In this document: positions 8,006 to 18,252 of the stretch, piece by piece
Layout: every line of letters starts with the position of its first letter
Numbering within the stretch: position 1 is the stretch's first letter
DNA from: a virus
Lineage: Duplodnaviria; Caudoviricetes
Virus record (IMG/VR): IMGVR_UViG_3300030048_000321
Coordinates: 1-24,289 of that record
Strand: one strand, 5' to 3'
Length of the DNA stretch: 24,289 bases
Translations under genes and position numbers: made by a program
The notes under the pieces: generated by a model
The model's input: only the letters and a program-made list of their open reading frames with translations
What the model was told of the DNA's origin: nothing
Databases searched by the model: none

Positions 8006-8359
8006 TTATTCACGTGCGGGCGAGGCGGGGGCTTGTGGCAGCACCACGGCTCCGGAAGGCAAGCTTTCGTCCGCGACCGCAGGTGCGGCTGGTGAGCGGT
8101 TGGGGGAGGGATCGCCCGCCCCCAAAGGGAGCGTCTGCGACCGTGCCAAAACCTCCACTAGTGTGAAAACTTCGCGCGCCAGGTACGTGGCGGCGCATTC
8201 ACCCTCCACCATCCAGGCACAGTTGTCGCGGCAGGCGATCTGCGTCAGCGGACAACGGTGCGGCGGAAACGGTTCTGTCTGTACCTCCGGCGCTGCGGGT
8301 CGGCTCTTGGGCAGTGGTGCGTGGGGGCGAATAAACTCCTGCTTTTTCCGGCCAAACAT
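8006..8359 (-). CDS. Hypothetical Pro-rich protein with a Cys4 cluster (about 117 aa)
   Basis: ATG overlaps the Dit stop (TAATG); RCPLTQIACRDNCAWMVEGECA; fills the Dit-Tal gap; alternative start 8368. Confidence 0.6.
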   Translation of the reverse strand: MFGRKKQEFIRPHAPLPKSRPAAPEVQTEPFPPHRCPLTQIACRDNCAWMVEGECAATYLAREVFTLVEVLARSQTLPLGAGDPSPNRSPAAPAVADESLPSGAVVLPQAPASPARE

Positions 8360-9156
8360 TAAATCCATCTCCCTCTTGCATGTGCCTTGGCGGTTGCCTG
8401 TCCGGATCCGCTGCCGAAGGTCAGTGCCACGGTTACGGTCGCAGGCCCGCTTGCGGTCAGGTAGTCAAAGCGCGTTGTCTTGTCCAGCGCGCTGGCGTCG
8501 CCGATGGTGGCGTCAATGGGGGCTTCCATGTTGATCCGCAGCGTTTCGCCAGCAGCCAGCATAAACTCTTTGTTGAAAATAGCCTGCCTGTCGCCCACAG
8601 CCACGGTGGCTTCGGTGATGGCTGCTGTTCCGGTGTTGGTAATGTCGCAACATACCGGCGCAGGCTCTCCCGTATACAGGGGTAGGGCAAGCGCGTGGGC
8701 GGCGGCATCCGTGATGGTTGCGCTTACGACTGCCTCCTGCAGGTCGTAGGCTTTTGGCTGGCAACGGATTTCAATGTCCAGCCCGCCGTCCGGCCATCCG
8801 CTTTCCGTGTAATCCGTGCCCGCGGAGATCTCCGCAAGCAGATACTTGTCCGGTTCAAAGTCCCACGTCAGCCGCCTGCGTCCCGCCTTCAGCCACGCGC
8901 CGATCTGCCGGTAGATGCGCATGGCCGCCGCATCACTTCCCGGCGTGTGCATGAGGTAGAGCGTCCCCTTGTGCTTCACCACTTCATGCGTGCGGTCGTC
9001 GCCATAGATCAGGTCGCCGTCCGCCCCGCTGATTTCAAAGGTGCGGAAGATGCTGTCTGGGCTTACCGGGCGGCTTTTGTTGAAAATGTAGAAGCAGTCA
9101 AAGTCCCGCAGGCAGTGCCGCCCGTCAAAGGTGAAGTTGCATTCAACAACGGACAA
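8359..9156 (-). CDS. Distal tail protein Dit (265 aa)
   Basis: TTG start with GGAAGGAGG SD; NFTFDG.HC..DF, EISGADG, RL.WD.EPDKY..A, RCQP.AY features; position between TMP and Tal. Confidence 0.82.
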   Translation of the reverse strand: MSVVECNFTFDGRHCLRDFDCFYIFNKSRPVSPDSIFRTFEISGADGDLIYGDDRTHEVVKHKGTLYLMHTPGSDAAAMRIYRQIGAWLKAGRRRLTWDFEPDKYLLAEISAGTDYTESGWPDGGLDIEIRCQPKAYDLQEAVVSATITDAAAHALALPLYTGEPAPVCCDITNTGTAAITEATVAVGDRQAIFNKEFMLAAGETLRINMEAPIDATIGDASALDKTTRFDYLTASGPATVTVALTFGSGSGQATAKAHARGRWI

Positions 9157-9193: not shown

Positions 9194-9220
9194 AAAAACC
9201 GCCCCCGGTAAAGGGCGGTT
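9194..9220 (-). terminator. Intrinsic terminator closing the RHH/orphan operon
   Basis: AACCGCCC-8 nt-GGGCGGTT then TTTATAT on the minus strand. Confidence 0.75.
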
Positions 9221-9240: not shown

Positions 9241-9498
9241 TCAACTGGCTTCAATAACGCTGCAGGTAACGCACTGTGCAACATCGTCCAGTTTGGCGCG
9301 AATGTCGTTCAGGTAATCATCCAGCAGCCACAGAAAATCGGTAACCTGTTGGGTATCGATACCGATTTGGGTTCCATCGTAGGCGCTTCGCATCATGCCA
9401 ATGGTGCTTTGCATCTTGCGAACCATCGTATCTGCGGTTTCCATCTCATCCAGAAAACCCCGGTTCTTTGGGTTGGTGAACTGGCTCAGCTTTCCCAT
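9241..9498 (-). CDS. Orphan small helical protein (85 aa), second gene of the RHH operon
   Basis: Strong SD GAAAGGAG 5 nt before ATG 9498; followed by a terminator; no recognisable family. Confidence 0.75.
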   Translation of the reverse strand: MGKLSQFTNPKNRGFLDEMETADTMVRKMQSTIGMMRSAYDGTQIGIDTQQVTDFLWLLDDYLNDIRAKLDDVAQCVTCSVIEAS

Positions 9499-9513
9499 GG
9501 TTTCTCCTTTCAG

Positions 9514-9543
9514 TTGACCCGAAAGAAGCGCATGTGGTATAAT
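9514..9543 (+). promoter_or_regulatory. Sigma-A/70 promoter for an antisense RNA
   Basis: TTGACC (9514-9519), 18-nt spacer containing TG, TATAAT (9538-9543): extended -10. Confidence 0.75.
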
Positions 9544-9549
9544 ATTCAT

Positions 9550-9620
9550 GCTTCCCTTCGGGGTTGTACGAGATAGGATGTTGCGAACTGTGGTAGGGGA
9601 GCAGCATCCTATTTTTCTTT
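9550..9620 (+). ncRNA. Predicted ~70-nt cis-antisense small RNA
   Basis: Bounded by the promoter above and a terminator (ATAGGATGTTGC/GCAGCATCCTAT stem 9573-9612 plus TTTTCTTT); 5' CCC-TTCG-GGG hairpin; antisense to the RHH/orphan intergenic leader. Confidence 0.6.
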
Positions 9621-9782
9621 GGCCAAAAGCAAATGAATCCCTTGACGTATCGCTTCGGTCTTGGTTATGCCATACATCAGACAGTATGCCGTTAACTTGG
9701 CATCCGTTTCCTTATCAATTCGAACCTTGATGTCTACATTTTTGGGATTCTCGATCTTTGGCCTTCCCATAGGTGGGGGCAT
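9609..9782 (-). CDS. Ribbon-helix-helix (CopG/Arc-like) transcriptional regulator (57 aa)
   Basis: MGRPKIENPKNVDIKVRID..T..KL..YC...GITKTEAIRQGI..LL, the typical Bacillota phage RHH pattern; AAAGGAGG SD. Confidence 0.85.
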   Translation of the reverse strand: MPPPMGRPKIENPKNVDIKVRIDKETDAKLTAYCLMYGITKTEAIRQGIHLLLAKEK

Positions 9783-9794
9783 TCCATTCGCCTC

Positions 9795-9836
9795 CTTTCT
9801 GTGTTCCATTATATATAACGGAACACAGAAAGTCAA
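9795..9836 (-). promoter_or_regulatory. Near-consensus promoter embedded in a 38-bp palindromic operator
   Basis: TTGACT-17 nt-TATAAT on the minus strand; palindrome CTTTCTGTGTTCC-ATTATATATAAC-GGAACACAGAAAG (9795-9832) with one mismatched pair. Confidence 0.85.
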
Positions 9837-9842
9837 GCATAA

Positions 9843-9871
9843 TTTCCAATTTCTATTCTTTGTGCTATAAT
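9843..9871 (+). promoter_or_regulatory. Promoter of the plus-strand moron
   Basis: TTTCCA-17 nt-TATAAT with TG extended -10 (TGCTATAAT 9863-9871), back-to-back with the RHH promoter. Confidence 0.7.
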
Positions 9872-9895: not shown

Positions 9896-10645
9896 GTGAA
9901 AAAAATCATCGCTGCTCTGCTTTTGCTCTTCCTTTTGTTTGCCGATGTGTGTAATGCGGAAGAGTTGATTTTTAAAGAGAATAGTCGCGTTGTCGCAGGC
10001 ACCGATATTGACGCTGGAACATATACTATAAGCGATGTTAAAGATGATGATTATAGCACTTTCGCAATTTTAGATACAGACAAATCAGTGTTGGACTCCT
10101 TTACCCTAGGGTTGTTTGAGGATTCGACAATTGTTACTCTTGAAGAGGGACAAATGATTATGTTGATGATAGGCAGCATATCACTTGCTCCACTCTCGGA
10201 GGAACAATCCAAGGCTGTTATGGCATCTGATCCCTATCTCAATGCGATTGATGGGGTTGACCTCCATCAAGCATTCGCAAAAGCGGAAGATATAGCTGAA
10301 GCATCCGGAGACTATCCCTTGCTCAAAAGCGTGGGCTTCAATTATGACGAGAAACTTAACACCATATCAATCACTATTTGGCTCCTAGATGATGCCACGG
10401 TCGATATTGCAAATACGTATGCTTACGATATGGTTCGCATGGTGAACACTTGTTGCATCTACCAGAACACCAGCATCGCTCCTTCGGCGCCGAAATACCT
10501 CGGGGGCATTTACGATGTGGTGAACTGCACCCTTCTCGCCTGTCGCTGGAACGACATGCCTGACATCACCAAGGCGTTGGTAAACCATATTATACCCGTT
10601 GGCACCCAAGGCTTCGGAACCGTGGATGCCAACGAGCTCAAGTAA
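9896..10645 (+). CDS. Secreted/surface acidic protein of unknown function (moron, 249 aa)
   Basis: GTG 9896 with AAGGGGG SD; Sec-type signal MKKIIAALLLLFLLFADVCNA|EE; lower GC; own promoter; opposite strand to the structural operon. Confidence 0.85.
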   Translation: MKKIIAALLLLFLLFADVCNAEELIFKENSRVVAGTDIDAGTYTISDVKDDDYSTFAILDTDKSVLDSFTLGLFEDSTIVTLEEGQMIMLMIGSISLAPLSEEQSKAVMASDPYLNAIDGVDLHQAFAKAEDIAEASGDYPLLKSVGFNYDEKLNTISITIWLLDDATVDIANTYAYDMVRMVNTCCIYQNTSIAPSAPKYLGGIYDVVNCTLLACRWNDMPDITKALVNHIIPVGTQGFGTVDANELK

Positions 10646-10648
10646 TAG

Positions 10649-13600
10649 TTATACCAGCGTCATTCGGCTGTTTCGGCCGCTCACGCTCTTGGTGCTCCGC
10701 CTGCGGGTGGCACGACTCACGTCCGGCTCCAGTGTGGTGGCCATTAGCTTACCATCGATGGTCATGATGGCCGTCCCGATTCCGGCGCTCTTGTTGGCAG
10801 CCGCAACCTCTGCGCCCAACCGTGCATAGTCCAGCGTGAAGGGCGTGCTGGCTGCGCTGCGTGTGCCCACGGCAGTGCTTCCGGCCGCCGTGCGGCTAAG
10901 CCCGGCGGCGGCCTCCACCACGCCCTGCATGTTGCGCTCAATGCCGCGGCCGAAGCCTGCGTCGTACTGTTCGCCAATTCCCTCCATCACGTGGCTGGGG
11001 CTTCGGATATCCAGCTCGTTTTTGGCGGCCTGGTAGGCAGCCCGCGCCGCCGCCCTGGCCGCGCTGGTAATCACAGAAGTGTTGTTGCGAATGCCGCGCG
11101 CCATGCCCTGGTCGATGGCTTCGCCGATGCTTTCAAAGTTGATGCCGCTGCGGCCTACAACGCTCCACAGGGCGCTGCTGGCCGCCGTGGCCAGTGCGCC
11201 GGCAGAAGTCGCCACGTCCGTACGCTGCCCGTCCAACCCGCGTTTTACGCCCTTTCCGATGGCCCCTCCCAGTAGCATCCCCTGCGCTTCGGTCAGGATA
11301 GCCGCTATGGCCTTGGTTACGGTGGTGGCCATGGTGCTTCCGGCTGCGGCGTTGGTTACGGTGCTATCCTCAATGGCGGTTTCAATGGCGGCCATCATGC
11401 CCTGGGCGGTCAGCGTAATGCTGGCCGCGATCGTTTCCATGGTGGTCAGCGCCGTAGCCGCGTCAGTGGTAATGGTGGTCAACAGCTCGGCGATCTTGGT
11501 TTGCGCCGCTTCGGCGGCAGCCTGCGCGCCCTTGATATCTTCGGCAGTGGCGAGGATTTTTTCAGCTTCCGTGGCAATTTCATCGCCCGCTACCTTTGCC
11601 CCGTCGGCAGCCTCTCCGGCGGCATCCTTGCCGTCGGCCAGCTTGCCGGTAGCAATCTCCATCTTTCCCGCGCCTTCCAGCGCGGAATCGCCCCCGGCGT
11701 TGATGGCGTCACCTGCCGCCTGCCCGGCGGTTCCGGCGGCAGTGGCGGCGGGAGTCATGGCGTTATAGGCAGCAGTTTCTTTAGTAATCGTTTCAACAAT
11801 GCCATCCAACTTCTGCTTCGTTGCTTCGGCACCGTCCTGATACTCTTTCATCTTGCCCTGCGCGGTATCCACAACGCCTTTTTGATCGGATAACGCGCTA
11901 TTTGTTCCACTTACCGCATCGCCAAGCTGTGACATGGCGGAATCATAGGCGGCAATTACATCGGTTCCGTCCTTCAACTTTACGGTGCCGTCGGCAAGCA
12001 CATCCACGAACCCGGCCATGGGGTTTTCTATGCCGCTGAACTGCTTTATGGTATTGTAGATCTGCGTAAGGTTTTCCTCGAAGGCTGTCAGGCCGCCCCC
12101 TCCGGTGCCGAAGATGTTATCAAACATTCCCTGCGCGTTGTCTGCCGCTGTTTGCAGCTCCGTCAACTTGGTTTGCGCTTCCTGGTACTTGGCGGTCTGA
12201 TCATCCAGCTTAATGTTGAACTCGGCAAGCGCCTGCCCTACGGTCTTCAGGTAGTCCTGATATCCTTCTACTAAGGCCAACTGTGCAAGCGCGTTAATAT
12301 TGTTCTGGATGGCCTGCGTGTTGGTGTTGAACAGCCCTGTGGCAGGGTCGATGTACTGGGCTAGTTGCGGATACAGCTCCGCAATCTGTTCAGCGTATCC
12401 GGCCATCAGGGTCAGGTCGGCATCAGTTTTAATATCCTTCTTTTCCAGCTGGTCATACAGGGCCAGTAGCTCGGTCGCCAGCGTTTTCTTCGCTTCGGCG
12501 TCCGTCTGCGAGCTTTCAAGGTTTGAGTCGGCTTTGTCCAGCACCGTCTTAAAGGCGGCCCATGCCTTTTCGGTGGCCCCAAACTGTTGCTCATAGGCGG
12601 CGGCTATCTCATCGGCATTCGTGAAGGCGGCGGTAATCGCGTCCCCAAGGCTGCCCACCAGTTCCATGGCCATCCCGCCCCAGTCGGCGTCCAGCAGCCC
12701 TTTCACCAGTTCCCCGATGATCATCGGCCCCTTGGCGATCAACATGCTGGCGTTCTTCACCAGCGCGACCGCGAACTTGCCCAGCAGCTCCACAGCACCG
12801 CTCACGATGTCCCTGAGCCCGTTACCGCTCACCAGCCCGTCGATGAAGCTTTCGACGATCTCTCCGGAGGCGTCCACCAATTCCGGCGCGGCATCAATCA
12901 GAAAATCCACCAGGCTTTTAATCAGGTCAGCGGCCATGGTGCCGATTTCATCGCTGTTGTCCGACATGGAGTCCAGGAAGCCGCGCAGCAGCTCCAGCGC
13001 CGCAGGGGCCAGGTCGCCCACCAGTTTGGGCAGTTCCTTGGCCAGCACCGCGATAATGGCTTTCGCGGCCTTCGTGGCCACGGGGATCGCCTTGCGGATG
13101 AGCGGGGTGATGTCGGCAAGCGCATCTTCCAAACTGCCCATCAGGTCGTCCATGATGGTTTCCAGCTCGCCCGGCTGCAGCCCGTCCTTCAGCGCGGCGC
13201 TGAGCTTGCCCATGCCGTCCGAGGCGGCGTCCACCAGCGGCTGGAAGGCGGGCACCAACAGCAGCCCAATGGTGTTGGCCAGCCCGTCGGCAGTGGCGTT
13301 CATGCGCTGCATGGAATCATCAAAACCGCCCAGCGTGGCCAGCTGGCTGTCGCTGAACACCGTGCCCATCTTTTCGGCTTCATTGCCAAGTTTCGTAATG
13401 GCGTCTCCGCCTGCCTCAATCAATGGGTTTAATTCCTGAGCGGATTTCCCGAACAGATCCATCGCGGCCGCGTCGCGCTCGGTTTCATTGGTCATTTTAC
13501 CCAACGCATCGATGGAGTCGGCAAAGATATCCTCGCTGTCGCGCAATTCGCCCGTGACCTTGTCGCGAATATCAACGCCCAGCGCCTTGAATTTCTCCTG

Positions 13601-14347
13601 CGCAGTCTTGCTGCCGTCGGCCGCATCGCCCACCGTCTTGGTCATCTTGGCCATGCTCTTGGTGATGGTGTCCACCGGCGTGTCCATAAAGTTGGCGGCA
13701 TACGTCCACTTTTGCAGCTGGTCGGCGGCAATGCCGGTCTGCTGGCTGGTGGTCAGCACATCGTCGGCCATGCTGCCGGCGCTCTTGCTAAGTTCAAACC
13801 CCTTCTTTGCGGCCTGCAGAGCAAATTCGCCCATGTCTTTAAGCGCAGTACCGGCCGCCTTTACTGCGGTGATAAAAGCGCCGTTGATAGCGCCAGCCAC
13901 GTTTCGGATCCCGGCAAGGAAGGCCACGCCGATGGCTGCAACCACCAGCGCGGTTTCGGCCTCAAAGTCGGCCATCGCTTGGGTGTTTTTCTTTAACTCT
14001 GCATCCGCGTTGGCCATTTCGGCGTTTGCTTCGTTCAGCACCAGTTGAAGATTGCGGGTTTCATCGGCATTTTCGCCGTACTTTGCCCGGCATTTTTCCA
14101 GCATGTCCCGCAGGGTAACCACCTTTTGCAGCTGCAGGTCGTATTTCTCGTTCAGCTCACCCTGCCGCCGCTTCAGGTTCTCCATGGTCGCGCCTTGCGC
14201 CTTGAACTCGGCGGTGGTCACGCTCATTTCGCTCTTGAGCATCTTCATCCGCTGGCCGATGCCTTCGAGCGCTTCCCGGTACTCCTTTTCCCCGCCAATC
14301 CCTATGCTTGCGCGGAGCTTCGGATCACTTCCGCCTTTCTTGCCCAT
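10649..14347 (-). CDS. Tail tape measure protein (about 1232 aa)
   Basis: Long Ala-rich helical protein after the chaperones; N-terminal IGIGGEKEY, core MDLFGKSAQELNPLIEAG, C-terminal LDIRSPSHVM; start set at ATG 14347 by the AAAGGGGG SD. Confidence 0.93.
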   Translation of the reverse strand: MGKKGGSDPKLRASIGIGGEKEYREALEGIGQRMKMLKSEMSVTTAEFKAQGATMENLKRRQGELNEKYDLQLQKVVTLRDMLEKCRAKYGENADETRNLQLVLNEANAEMANADAELKKNTQAMADFEAETALVVAAIGVAFLAGIRNVAGAINGAFITAVKAAGTALKDMGEFALQAAKKGFELSKSAGSMADDVLTTSQQTGIAADQLQKWTYAANFMDTPVDTITKSMAKMTKTVGDAADGSKTAQEKFKALGVDIRDKVTGELRDSEDIFADSIDALGKMTNETERDAAAMDLFGKSAQELNPLIEAGGDAITKLGNEAEKMGTVFSDSQLATLGGFDDSMQRMNATADGLANTIGLLLVPAFQPLVDAASDGMGKLSAALKDGLQPGELETIMDDLMGSLEDALADITPLIRKAIPVATKAAKAIIAVLAKELPKLVGDLAPAALELLRGFLDSMSDNSDEIGTMAADLIKSLVDFLIDAAPELVDASGEIVESFIDGLVSGNGLRDIVSGAVELLGKFAVALVKNASMLIAKGPMIIGELVKGLLDADWGGMAMELVGSLGDAITAAFTNADEIAAAYEQQFGATEKAWAAFKTVLDKADSNLESSQTDAEAKKTLATELLALYDQLEKKDIKTDADLTLMAGYAEQIAELYPQLAQYIDPATGLFNTNTQAIQNNINALAQLALVEGYQDYLKTVGQALAEFNIKLDDQTAKYQEAQTKLTELQTAADNAQGMFDNIFGTGGGGLTAFEENLTQIYNTIKQFSGIENPMAGFVDVLADGTVKLKDGTDVIAAYDSAMSQLGDAVSGTNSALSDQKGVVDTAQGKMKEYQDGAEATKQKLDGIVETITKETAAYNAMTPAATAAGTAGQAAGDAINAGGDSALEGAGKMEIATGKLADGKDAAGEAADGAKVAGDEIATEAEKILATAEDIKGAQAAAEAAQTKIAELLTTITTDAATALTTMETIAASITLTAQGMMAAIETAIEDSTVTNAAAGSTMATTVTKAIAAILTEAQGMLLGGAIGKGVKRGLDGQRTDVATSAGALATAASSALWSVVGRSGINFESIGEAIDQGMARGIRNNTSVITSAARAAARAAYQAAKNELDIRSPSHVMEGIGEQYDAGFGRGIERNMQGVVEAAAGLSRTAAGSTAVGTRSAASTPFTLDYARLGAEVAAANKSAGIGTAIMTIDGKLMATTLEPDVSRATRRRSTKSVSGRNSRMTLV

Positions 14348-14438
14348 GTAGCCGCCCCCTTTGCCGATTGTTCGGGTATCCGTCCATTCCGAGGCCGCCA
14401 TGGTCGCCGATCATGCGGCAGCTGCCTTCAGGCGTCGT

Positions 14439-17700: not shown

Positions 17701-18252
17701 CTAGGCGGTGACTACCACAGCGGCCGCTTCGCTGGCGGTGCTCACGCCCTCATAAGTCGCCACGCAGTAGTAGTAGGTCGTTCCGGCGGTTGCCCCCGTG
17801 GGGATGGCGTAACTCACGTCGGTCGCACCGTTCACGGCAGCGCCGCCCGTATTGCTGTCGGCAGCGTTGCTGTACCATTGATAGGTCGGCGTGCTCCCGT
17901 CGCTCACCTGGAAGGCGGCGGTCAGCACCGCGCCGGCGCCGATACTCCCTGCCACAAGGGCAAGGTCGGCGGGCTGGGTCAGCACCGCGATGGTAGGCGC
18001 AGCAGCCATTAGCCCGGCAGAGCGAAGCTTCGCCAGCAGCTCGTTGTGTTCGGCGCGAATCGCGGCCACGGTGCTGGCGTCGCTTCCCGCGTCCTGCATG
18101 TACTTAATCGGGGGCAACCCGGTCAAGGCGGGCAGCCCGGAAATGGTCGCGCCCGCTTCCAGCGTCAGCTTCGCGCCCGCTTTCACGCGCAGCTCACCGC
18201 CGATCACCGTCTGGCTGCCGTTGCGGCCGGTATAGTTTTTCGTTGCGTTCAT
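17701..18252 (-). CDS. Head fiber/decoration protein with C-terminal Ig-like domain (183 aa)
   Basis: TKNYT..NG..TVIGGEL N-terminus; VAAIRAEHNELLAKLRSAGLM helix; TQPAD...TYQWY...G..V.GAT..SY......AGTTYYYCVAT Ig fold. Confidence 0.8.
   Translation of the reverse strand: MNATKNYTGRNGSQTVIGGELRVKAGAKLTLEAGATISGLPALTGLPPIKYMQDAGSDASTVAAIRAEHNELLAKLRSAGLMAAAPTIAVLTQPADLALVAGSIGAGAVLTAAFQVSDGSTPTYQWYSNAADSNTGGAAVNGATDVSYAIPTGATAGTTYYYCVATYEGVSTASEAAAVVVTA

Follow-up and report, generated by a model that had tools for sequence, protein, structure and literature searches.

The 110-nt spacer between a ribbon-helix-helix (RHH) repressor gene and a gene for an 85-aa orphan protein probably functions as an antisense attenuator of the pT181/pSK41 type that turns off translation of the 85-aa gene. 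The spacer encodes two mutually exclusive hairpins on the mRNA, one of which hides the Shine-Dalgarno sequence (SD), and a promoter on the opposite strand. The window (the whole stretch of DNA analysed, 24,289 nucleotides) covers a siphophage late region whose genes lie mostly on the minus strand; judged from relatives, the host group is mostly Clostridia. We read the stretch as prophage DNA, and the element as part of a cassette that is widespread in phages of Bacillota and consists of a CopG/Arc-like RHH repressor gene, a spacer of about 110 nt, and a variable gene that often encodes an antirepressor. The small cassette of the window is located between a tape-measure-like gene (10649-14401) and a distal tail gene (8359-9156), and has the following parts:

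9808-9836, minus strand: predicted sigma-A promoter of the cassette mRNA, 11/12 match to the consensus
9795-9832: palindrome with 13-bp arms around the -10 of the RHH promoter, likely the RHH auto-operator
9609-9782, minus strand: gene for a 57-aa CopG/Arc-like RHH repressor (phrog_876 repressor, E 1e-16)
110 nt between the RHH gene and the 85-aa gene: spacer with both hairpins and the opposite-strand promoter
9550-9620, plus strand: predicted antisense RNA of about 70 nt, its start site predicted too
9547-9564, minus strand: upstream arm (anti-anti-SD, the equivalent of a pre-emptor), covered by the 5' end of the antisense RNA
9516-9534, minus strand: switching (anti-SD) arm, common to the ON and OFF hairpins
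9514-9543, plus strand: antisense promoter, with the -35 at 9514-9519 and an extended -10 at 9533-9543
9504-9513, minus strand: SD-containing 3' arm of the OFF hairpin, without a U-tract after it
9241-9498, minus strand: 85-aa orphan gene, the regulated cargo, predicted to fold as a two-helix hairpin (pLDDT 78)
9197-9220, minus strand: predicted intrinsic terminator that ends the cassette, found by the terminator scan and like the hairpin after the same gene in relative L288

RHH searches led to 165 loci; in a viral scan 536 matches were confirmed, 80 of which were kept. The loci and the window provided 119 unique spacers, from which we took 95 representatives with less than 75% identity. Of these 95 relatives, 92 have a TTGAC hexamer ahead of the RHH gene, and 66 of the 92 also show a perfect inverted repeat, 6 bp or longer, at the RHH promoter, a count made without a shuffled control. 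By analogy to CopG and Arc, the palindrome in the window likely serves the RHH protein as its own operator. The RHH_1 match of the 57-aa protein (E 0.0014) lies just under the cut-off, and the start codon of its gene was placed from an SD at 9797-9791. A gene on the plus strand of the window (9896-10645) is oriented away from the RHH gene, has a predicted promoter to itself (9843-9871), and encodes a signal-like stretch at the N-terminus. Like sieA of the P22 ant moron, it may be a moron for superinfection exclusion, and in locus L062 a PHROG superinfection-exclusion gene occupies the equivalent position. Elsewhere in the window, both on the minus strand, an N6/N4 DNA methylase match (940-1503) is preceded by a short open reading frame in another frame (1545-1760), the two together (940-1760) possibly being one split gene, and an Ig-like-domain protein (17701-18252) is encoded immediately after the major capsid gene. 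Near the cassette in two other loci, Rfam identifies a skipping-rope RNA (L032, 1691-1770) and a GP20-b RNA (L161, 3927-3989).

The plus-strand promoter matches the consensus at 11 of 12 positions and includes the TG of an extended -10; the region between its two hexamers encodes the switching arm. The initial annotation had placed the -10 box of the small RNA in the loop of the ON hairpin, and the hexamer (9538-9543) indeed falls within that loop (9546-9535). The predicted RNA folds at -29.1 kcal/mol (z -4.1, with none of 200 shuffles equally stable) into a weak hairpin at its 5' end and then a terminator hairpin (9573-9612), which has a loop of the recognition type (9585-9600) and leads into a U-tract. 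This terminator, a 12-bp stem with a T-tract, is not listed by the terminator scan because its 16-nt loop exceeds the 8-nt limit of the scan. The stop codon of the RHH gene is located inside the terminator stem, and the A-rich final RHH codons template the U-tract in the window (9609-9620) and in relatives. As the initial annotation stated, the RNA is complementary to the upstream arm and not to the SD: the predicted transcript is clear of the SD at 9510-9504.

Of the 95 relatives, 85 have an antisense promoter with a score of 10 or more, compared with 6.4 in shuffles; 11 of the 85 were dropped for want of a callable SD and open reading frame, leaving 74 that could be tested. At least six A in the nine nucleotides ahead of the RHH stop were counted in 60 of the 74. 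The predicted antisense RNAs have a median length of about 70 nt, and their predicted starts lie 34-58 nt upstream of the SD in 74/74. By prediction from sequence, the cassette thus has what characterizes pT181 and pSK41 on the opposite strand, namely a promoter and a terminator for an RNA of 70-90 nt that is complementary to the leader without the SD. Among the rows listed in the transcription start site tables for C. difficile 630 (PMC8237595), a strain that may or may not carry the cassette, we recognized no homologous site.

Both pairings on the mRNA that the initial annotation described were reproduced. The arm at 9528-9519 pairs with 9513-9504 over 10 bp, including two G-U pairs, to form the OFF hairpin (-14.9 kcal/mol, z -3.5), and its alternative pairing with 9562-9547 corresponds to a 15-bp ON hairpin (-20.0 kcal/mol, z -4.6); for either hairpin none of 200 shuffles was as stable. 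A correction concerns the free full-length mRNA of the window copy, which is predicted to be mostly OFF at equilibrium: the energies of the full leader are -34.1 kcal/mol for ON versus -35.8 kcal/mol for OFF, and without the RNA 84% of the ensemble is OFF and 13% ON. For the window copy the model gives ON a probability of 0.77-0.92 as long as the start codon is untranscribed, and of 0.13 afterwards; the barrier from ON to OFF is about 12 kcal/mol along the path found. This suggests that ON in the window copy is probably a co-transcriptional, metastable (kinetic) state and not the equilibrium default. If positions 9550-9564 alone are blocked, opening the SD costs 10.6 instead of 3.0 kcal/mol; a block confined to the loop leaves this cost unchanged, and a modelled ribosome, placed either on the SD or at the RHH stop, shifts the leader to ON. 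According to these models, ON would form first and lie near OFF in energy, and the antisense RNA would lock the leader in OFF. The window copy has no U-run after its SD and appears to act on translation only.

The predicted response to the RNA is conserved in the family. In the 74 relatives the median cost of opening the SD is 3.1 kcal/mol in the free leader and 8.7 kcal/mol with the RNA-covered region blocked; the block raises the cost by more than 1 kcal/mol in 68/74 and lowers it by more than 0.5 in none. The free SD opens for at most 3 kcal/mol in 35 relatives, and the RNA-bound SD costs at least 6 kcal/mol in 57. Trimmed leaders gave 4.1 kcal/mol free and 8.7 bound; in these, the ON effect was lost when the upstream arm was shuffled (8.5) and the OFF effect when the spacer was shuffled (4.0), each in the expected direction in 70/74. 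The bases that pair with the SD double as bases of the ON stem in 69 relatives (shuffle mean 16.3, maximum 21), so that the mutually exclusive pre-emptor and SD-containing hairpins known from pT181 and pSK41 are found in 69/74. The pairing of the upstream arm with its own spacer is best or near-best, in the top 10%, in 64/74; for the spacer and its own SD region this holds in 32/74. At least five T in the eight nucleotides after the SD occur in 41 relatives, many of which likely also terminate transcription, as does pT181.

An independent pattern that fixed only promoter, flank and SD and left the outer arms free retrieved 120 loci, 80 of which had their flanks fetched; an ON hairpin is present at 59 of 69 unique loci, 48 of these 59 having a GRP-type RHH gene upstream. 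At four loci (L171, L181, L186 and L204) the switch is found behind genes that do not encode RHH proteins, including Cro-like HTH genes. In a Clostridium plasmid (L290, 2474-3215), copG is separated by a shorter spacer from a small gene, after which comes a DUF6809 gene.

A MAFFT alignment of 63 sequences gave no pairs in RNAalifold because the stems were misaligned; we relied instead on tests for each sequence and on two subtype alignments. The latter (28 and 20 sequences) were picked by eye and also served to derive the structures, and for this reason the counts lean towards structure. The ON helix shows two-sided changes in 12/12 pairs, which none of 500 shuffles matched, and in the subtype of the window in 9/13 pairs, with 33 two-sided cells versus 15.4 in shuffles. 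The OFF helix is 84.7% paired (5/500 shuffles), its two-sided covariation is not significant (189 and 52 of 500 shuffles), and no consensus OFF helix was found in the window's subtype. Covariation is strong for the ON stem and weak for the OFF stem; the latter is expected in part since the SD is fixed. Taken with the conservation among relatives and the two shuffle controls, the compensatory changes in the ON stem support the central proposal of the initial annotation, an antisense-triggered switch in which binding of the RNA drives SD sequestration indirectly.

An excess of G-U over A-C pairs bears on whether these helices function as RNA: it is 43 versus 11 in the OFF helix, and smaller in the ON helix (46 versus 24 and 27 versus 17). 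The modest excess in ON would suit an operator palindrome in the DNA around the antisense promoter that only resembles an RNA hairpin, as would a geometry that is the same as that of the RHH operator and the lack of a strand preference, the ON segment being more stable on the mRNA strand in 33/74 relatives (the terminator segment favours the antisense strand in 72/74). However, the arms contain bulges, and both their sequence and their spacing vary freely; an operator would also leave the pairing with the SD unexplained. Relative L288 (810-1560) has the same cargo gene and switch core as the window, whereas the RHH gene, the operator and the antisense terminator hairpin are replaced. The core is identical at 50/52 nt versus 218/258 nt in the cargo gene; the OFF loop is one base shorter, with the hairpin and a promoter both kept, and the free mRNA is predicted to be OFF at equilibrium, like the window copy. 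The cassette of L288 is situated just before the tape-measure gene, the one in the window after it. That the core travels with the cargo argues against the core being the RHH operator, and we regard a DNA operator as very improbable.

Less improbable, though still unlikely, is that a real antisense RNA represses the cargo through duplex formation and RNase III cleavage or through interference between the convergent promoters, with refolding being secondary. The two promoters do converge, full complementarity over 70 nt would give a very stable duplex, convergent transcription matters in pIP501 (PMC5703833), and the covariation of the OFF stem is weak. However, under this explanation neither the dual complementarity of the spacer arm, to the upstream arm and to the SD, nor the G-U excess of the OFF helix would be accounted for. 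A further explanation, improbable in our assessment, is that translation of the cargo is off by default, through an intrinsic timer or coupling to translation of the RHH gene, and that the small RNA only fine-tunes it or targets something else. The equilibrium P(OFF) of 0.84 in the leader without RNA is consistent with this, as is the finding that the model switches to a P(ON) of 0.76 once the bases beneath a ribosome positioned at the RHH stop are blocked; in addition, 10/95 relatives are without an antisense promoter. The barrier between ON and OFF, and the SD that is cheap to open in free leaders and costly in RNA-bound ones, speak against it.

The first genes after the spacer suggest what the attenuator would regulate. 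Rha, BRO-N, ORF6N, AntA, ANT or P22_AR_N domains are present in 25/71 first genes; 37 second genes were scanned as well, and an antirepressor-type second gene was found in 12 further loci, so that a first or second gene of this kind is present in 37/71. The other first genes are mostly orphans of 50-170 aa, and Rep families are absent among the 71. In annotated phages, genes of the KilAC, BRO-N or Rha kind come after copG; phage CDKM15 has a CRISPR array immediately ahead of copG, switch and BRO-N (L163, 1891-2780). Head, tail or lysis neighbours were recognized in 23/46 loci (68 of 109 flanking open reading frames scanned). The window itself is without an ant domain. Its 85-aa protein has four relatives of similar length. 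Pfam, PHROGs and the atlas yielded nothing significant for it, nor did fold searches; it does not resemble two further small cargo proteins and has no relative among the genome contigs searched. An atlas row at 0.87, with 20% "Derepression" members, we treat only as a lead. Judged only by the cargo of its relatives, the protein may be an antirepressor or an early effector. A type I toxin-antitoxin system was considered and rejected, given that the RNA is located on the 5' side of the cargo, which looks like a helical hairpin of a soluble kind.

Sequence features, conservation, covariation and energies were computed here; both transcripts, the loop contact, RHH autorepression, the timing and the role of the cargo we infer. 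In the proposed mechanism, the RHH promoter would drive a single mRNA comprising the RHH gene, the spacer and the cargo gene, and the ON hairpin would fold first during transcription, leaving the SD free. The constitutive RNA of about 70 nt would, through its loop, first touch the target hairpin at the RHH stop, and would then extend across the upstream arm; the freed switching arm would close on the SD, and in members with a U-run transcription would terminate too. Naked phage DNA entering a cell would meet neither RHH protein nor antisense RNA, and therefore a brief burst of cargo expression followed by shut-off at two levels would be expected, as in P22 arc-sar-ant. A superinfecting phage with the same cassette would have it silenced by the antisense RNA of the lysogen. 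For plasmid p576, transient expression upon DNA entry that is based on an RHH protein has been described (PMC6294495).

If so, antisense attenuation in a very compact form extends to hundreds of gut-type Clostridia phage records, with examples in phages of Streptococcus and Fusobacterium. This suggests how Gram-positive phages time the widespread Rha, BRO, ORF6N and AntA genes, as a counterpart of P22 immI, and it flags many small orphan genes as likely tightly timed effectors. More speculatively, and with less confidence than we place in the attenuator itself, Gram-positive temperate phages might possess a mobile, modular pulse generator made from plasmid copy-control parts (a CopG-like autorepressor and a pT181/pSK41 attenuator), whose exchangeable operators and RNA loops would form a large set of immI-like specificity groups, and whose orphan helical cargo, such as the 85-aa protein, might be unrecognised early-infection effectors (antirepressors or anti-defence proteins). 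If this is true, the motif could serve as a marker for such effectors, and its natural variants would amount to a library of compact, orthogonal RNA switches. Switches of this class are already used in synthetic biology, and the family offers many natural, sequence-diverse ones. Our literature search, which reached few subscription papers, found no paper on this element. Rows of a table in Fremin and Bhatt (2021) include motifs, uninterpreted there, near Bro-N, KilAC or RHH domains (e.g., HMP2_1970 and HMP2_12747); judged by their table rows, these may overlap the cassette family.

One of the closest known systems is pSK41. Its RNAI consists of two stem-loops and, by binding upstream, causes a hairpin to form that conceals the ribosome binding site without termination (PMC5703833), the same indirect effect predicted for the window copy. 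In the pSK41 record there is an A-tract as well as a target hairpin whose loop reads UUGGCGG, and UUGGCG occurs on the mRNA side in 15/74 relatives. However, the target in pSK41, a member of the RepA_N staphylococcal plasmids, is the plasmid Rep protein, and the RNA is described in that text as binding about 100 nt upstream of the initiation region, compared with the 34-58 nt between RNA start and SD in the cassettes. For pT181, a pre-emptor is described that competes with a hairpin holding the SD and a U-run (PMC5703833, PMC5435934). The pT181 record shows the same A-tract followed by a target hairpin as the cassette, with a near-identical recognition loop (UUGGU(C/A)G in 20/74 relatives). 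The differences are that the anti-terminator of pT181 is described as part of the first target hairpin, whereas here the competing arm flanks the antisense -10, that the window copy is without the U-run of the transcriptional pT181 type, and that the cargo is a phage gene and not Rep. The initial annotation had suggested a comparison with Rfam: at the gathering threshold there is no match in the window and none at the switch in 13 relatives. Weak matches to ctRNA_pT181 (RF00242) are located exactly at the antisense position, with 23.9 bits in the window and 31.5 and 37.6 bits in 2/20 other loci, all below the gathering cut-off of 56 and outside the family by that measure. A plasmid DNA search with the spacer returned only short matches of at most 32 nt.

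The operon layout matches that of pMV158 copG-rnaII-repB, where the target gene shares a transcript with an RHH gene that represses itself, and the countertranscript lies between the two (PMC5703833); however, RNAII blocks the initiation region directly from a promoter inside repB, whereas here the effect is indirect and the promoter is upstream of the SD. The excerpted text on EGeRS1 of pLS20 (PMC8708921) describes no antisense mechanism. In the immI region of P22 (mnt-arc-sar-ant) a repressor and an antisense RNA control the antirepressor in a moron inside the late operon (PMC2629481). The cassette resembles the ant moron in position and cargo, and here too an RHH gene immediately precedes the antisense gene; a second repressor resembling mnt was not identified, and the window copy is without an ant-family gene. 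Sar pairs directly over the ant ribosome site, whereas in every testable relative the predicted RNA begins upstream of the SD and does not directly cover the ribosome site. Antisense-induced attenuation of this kind is known from the control of plasmid replication. The design of the phage cassette is one already known from pT181 and pSK41; its setting is new.
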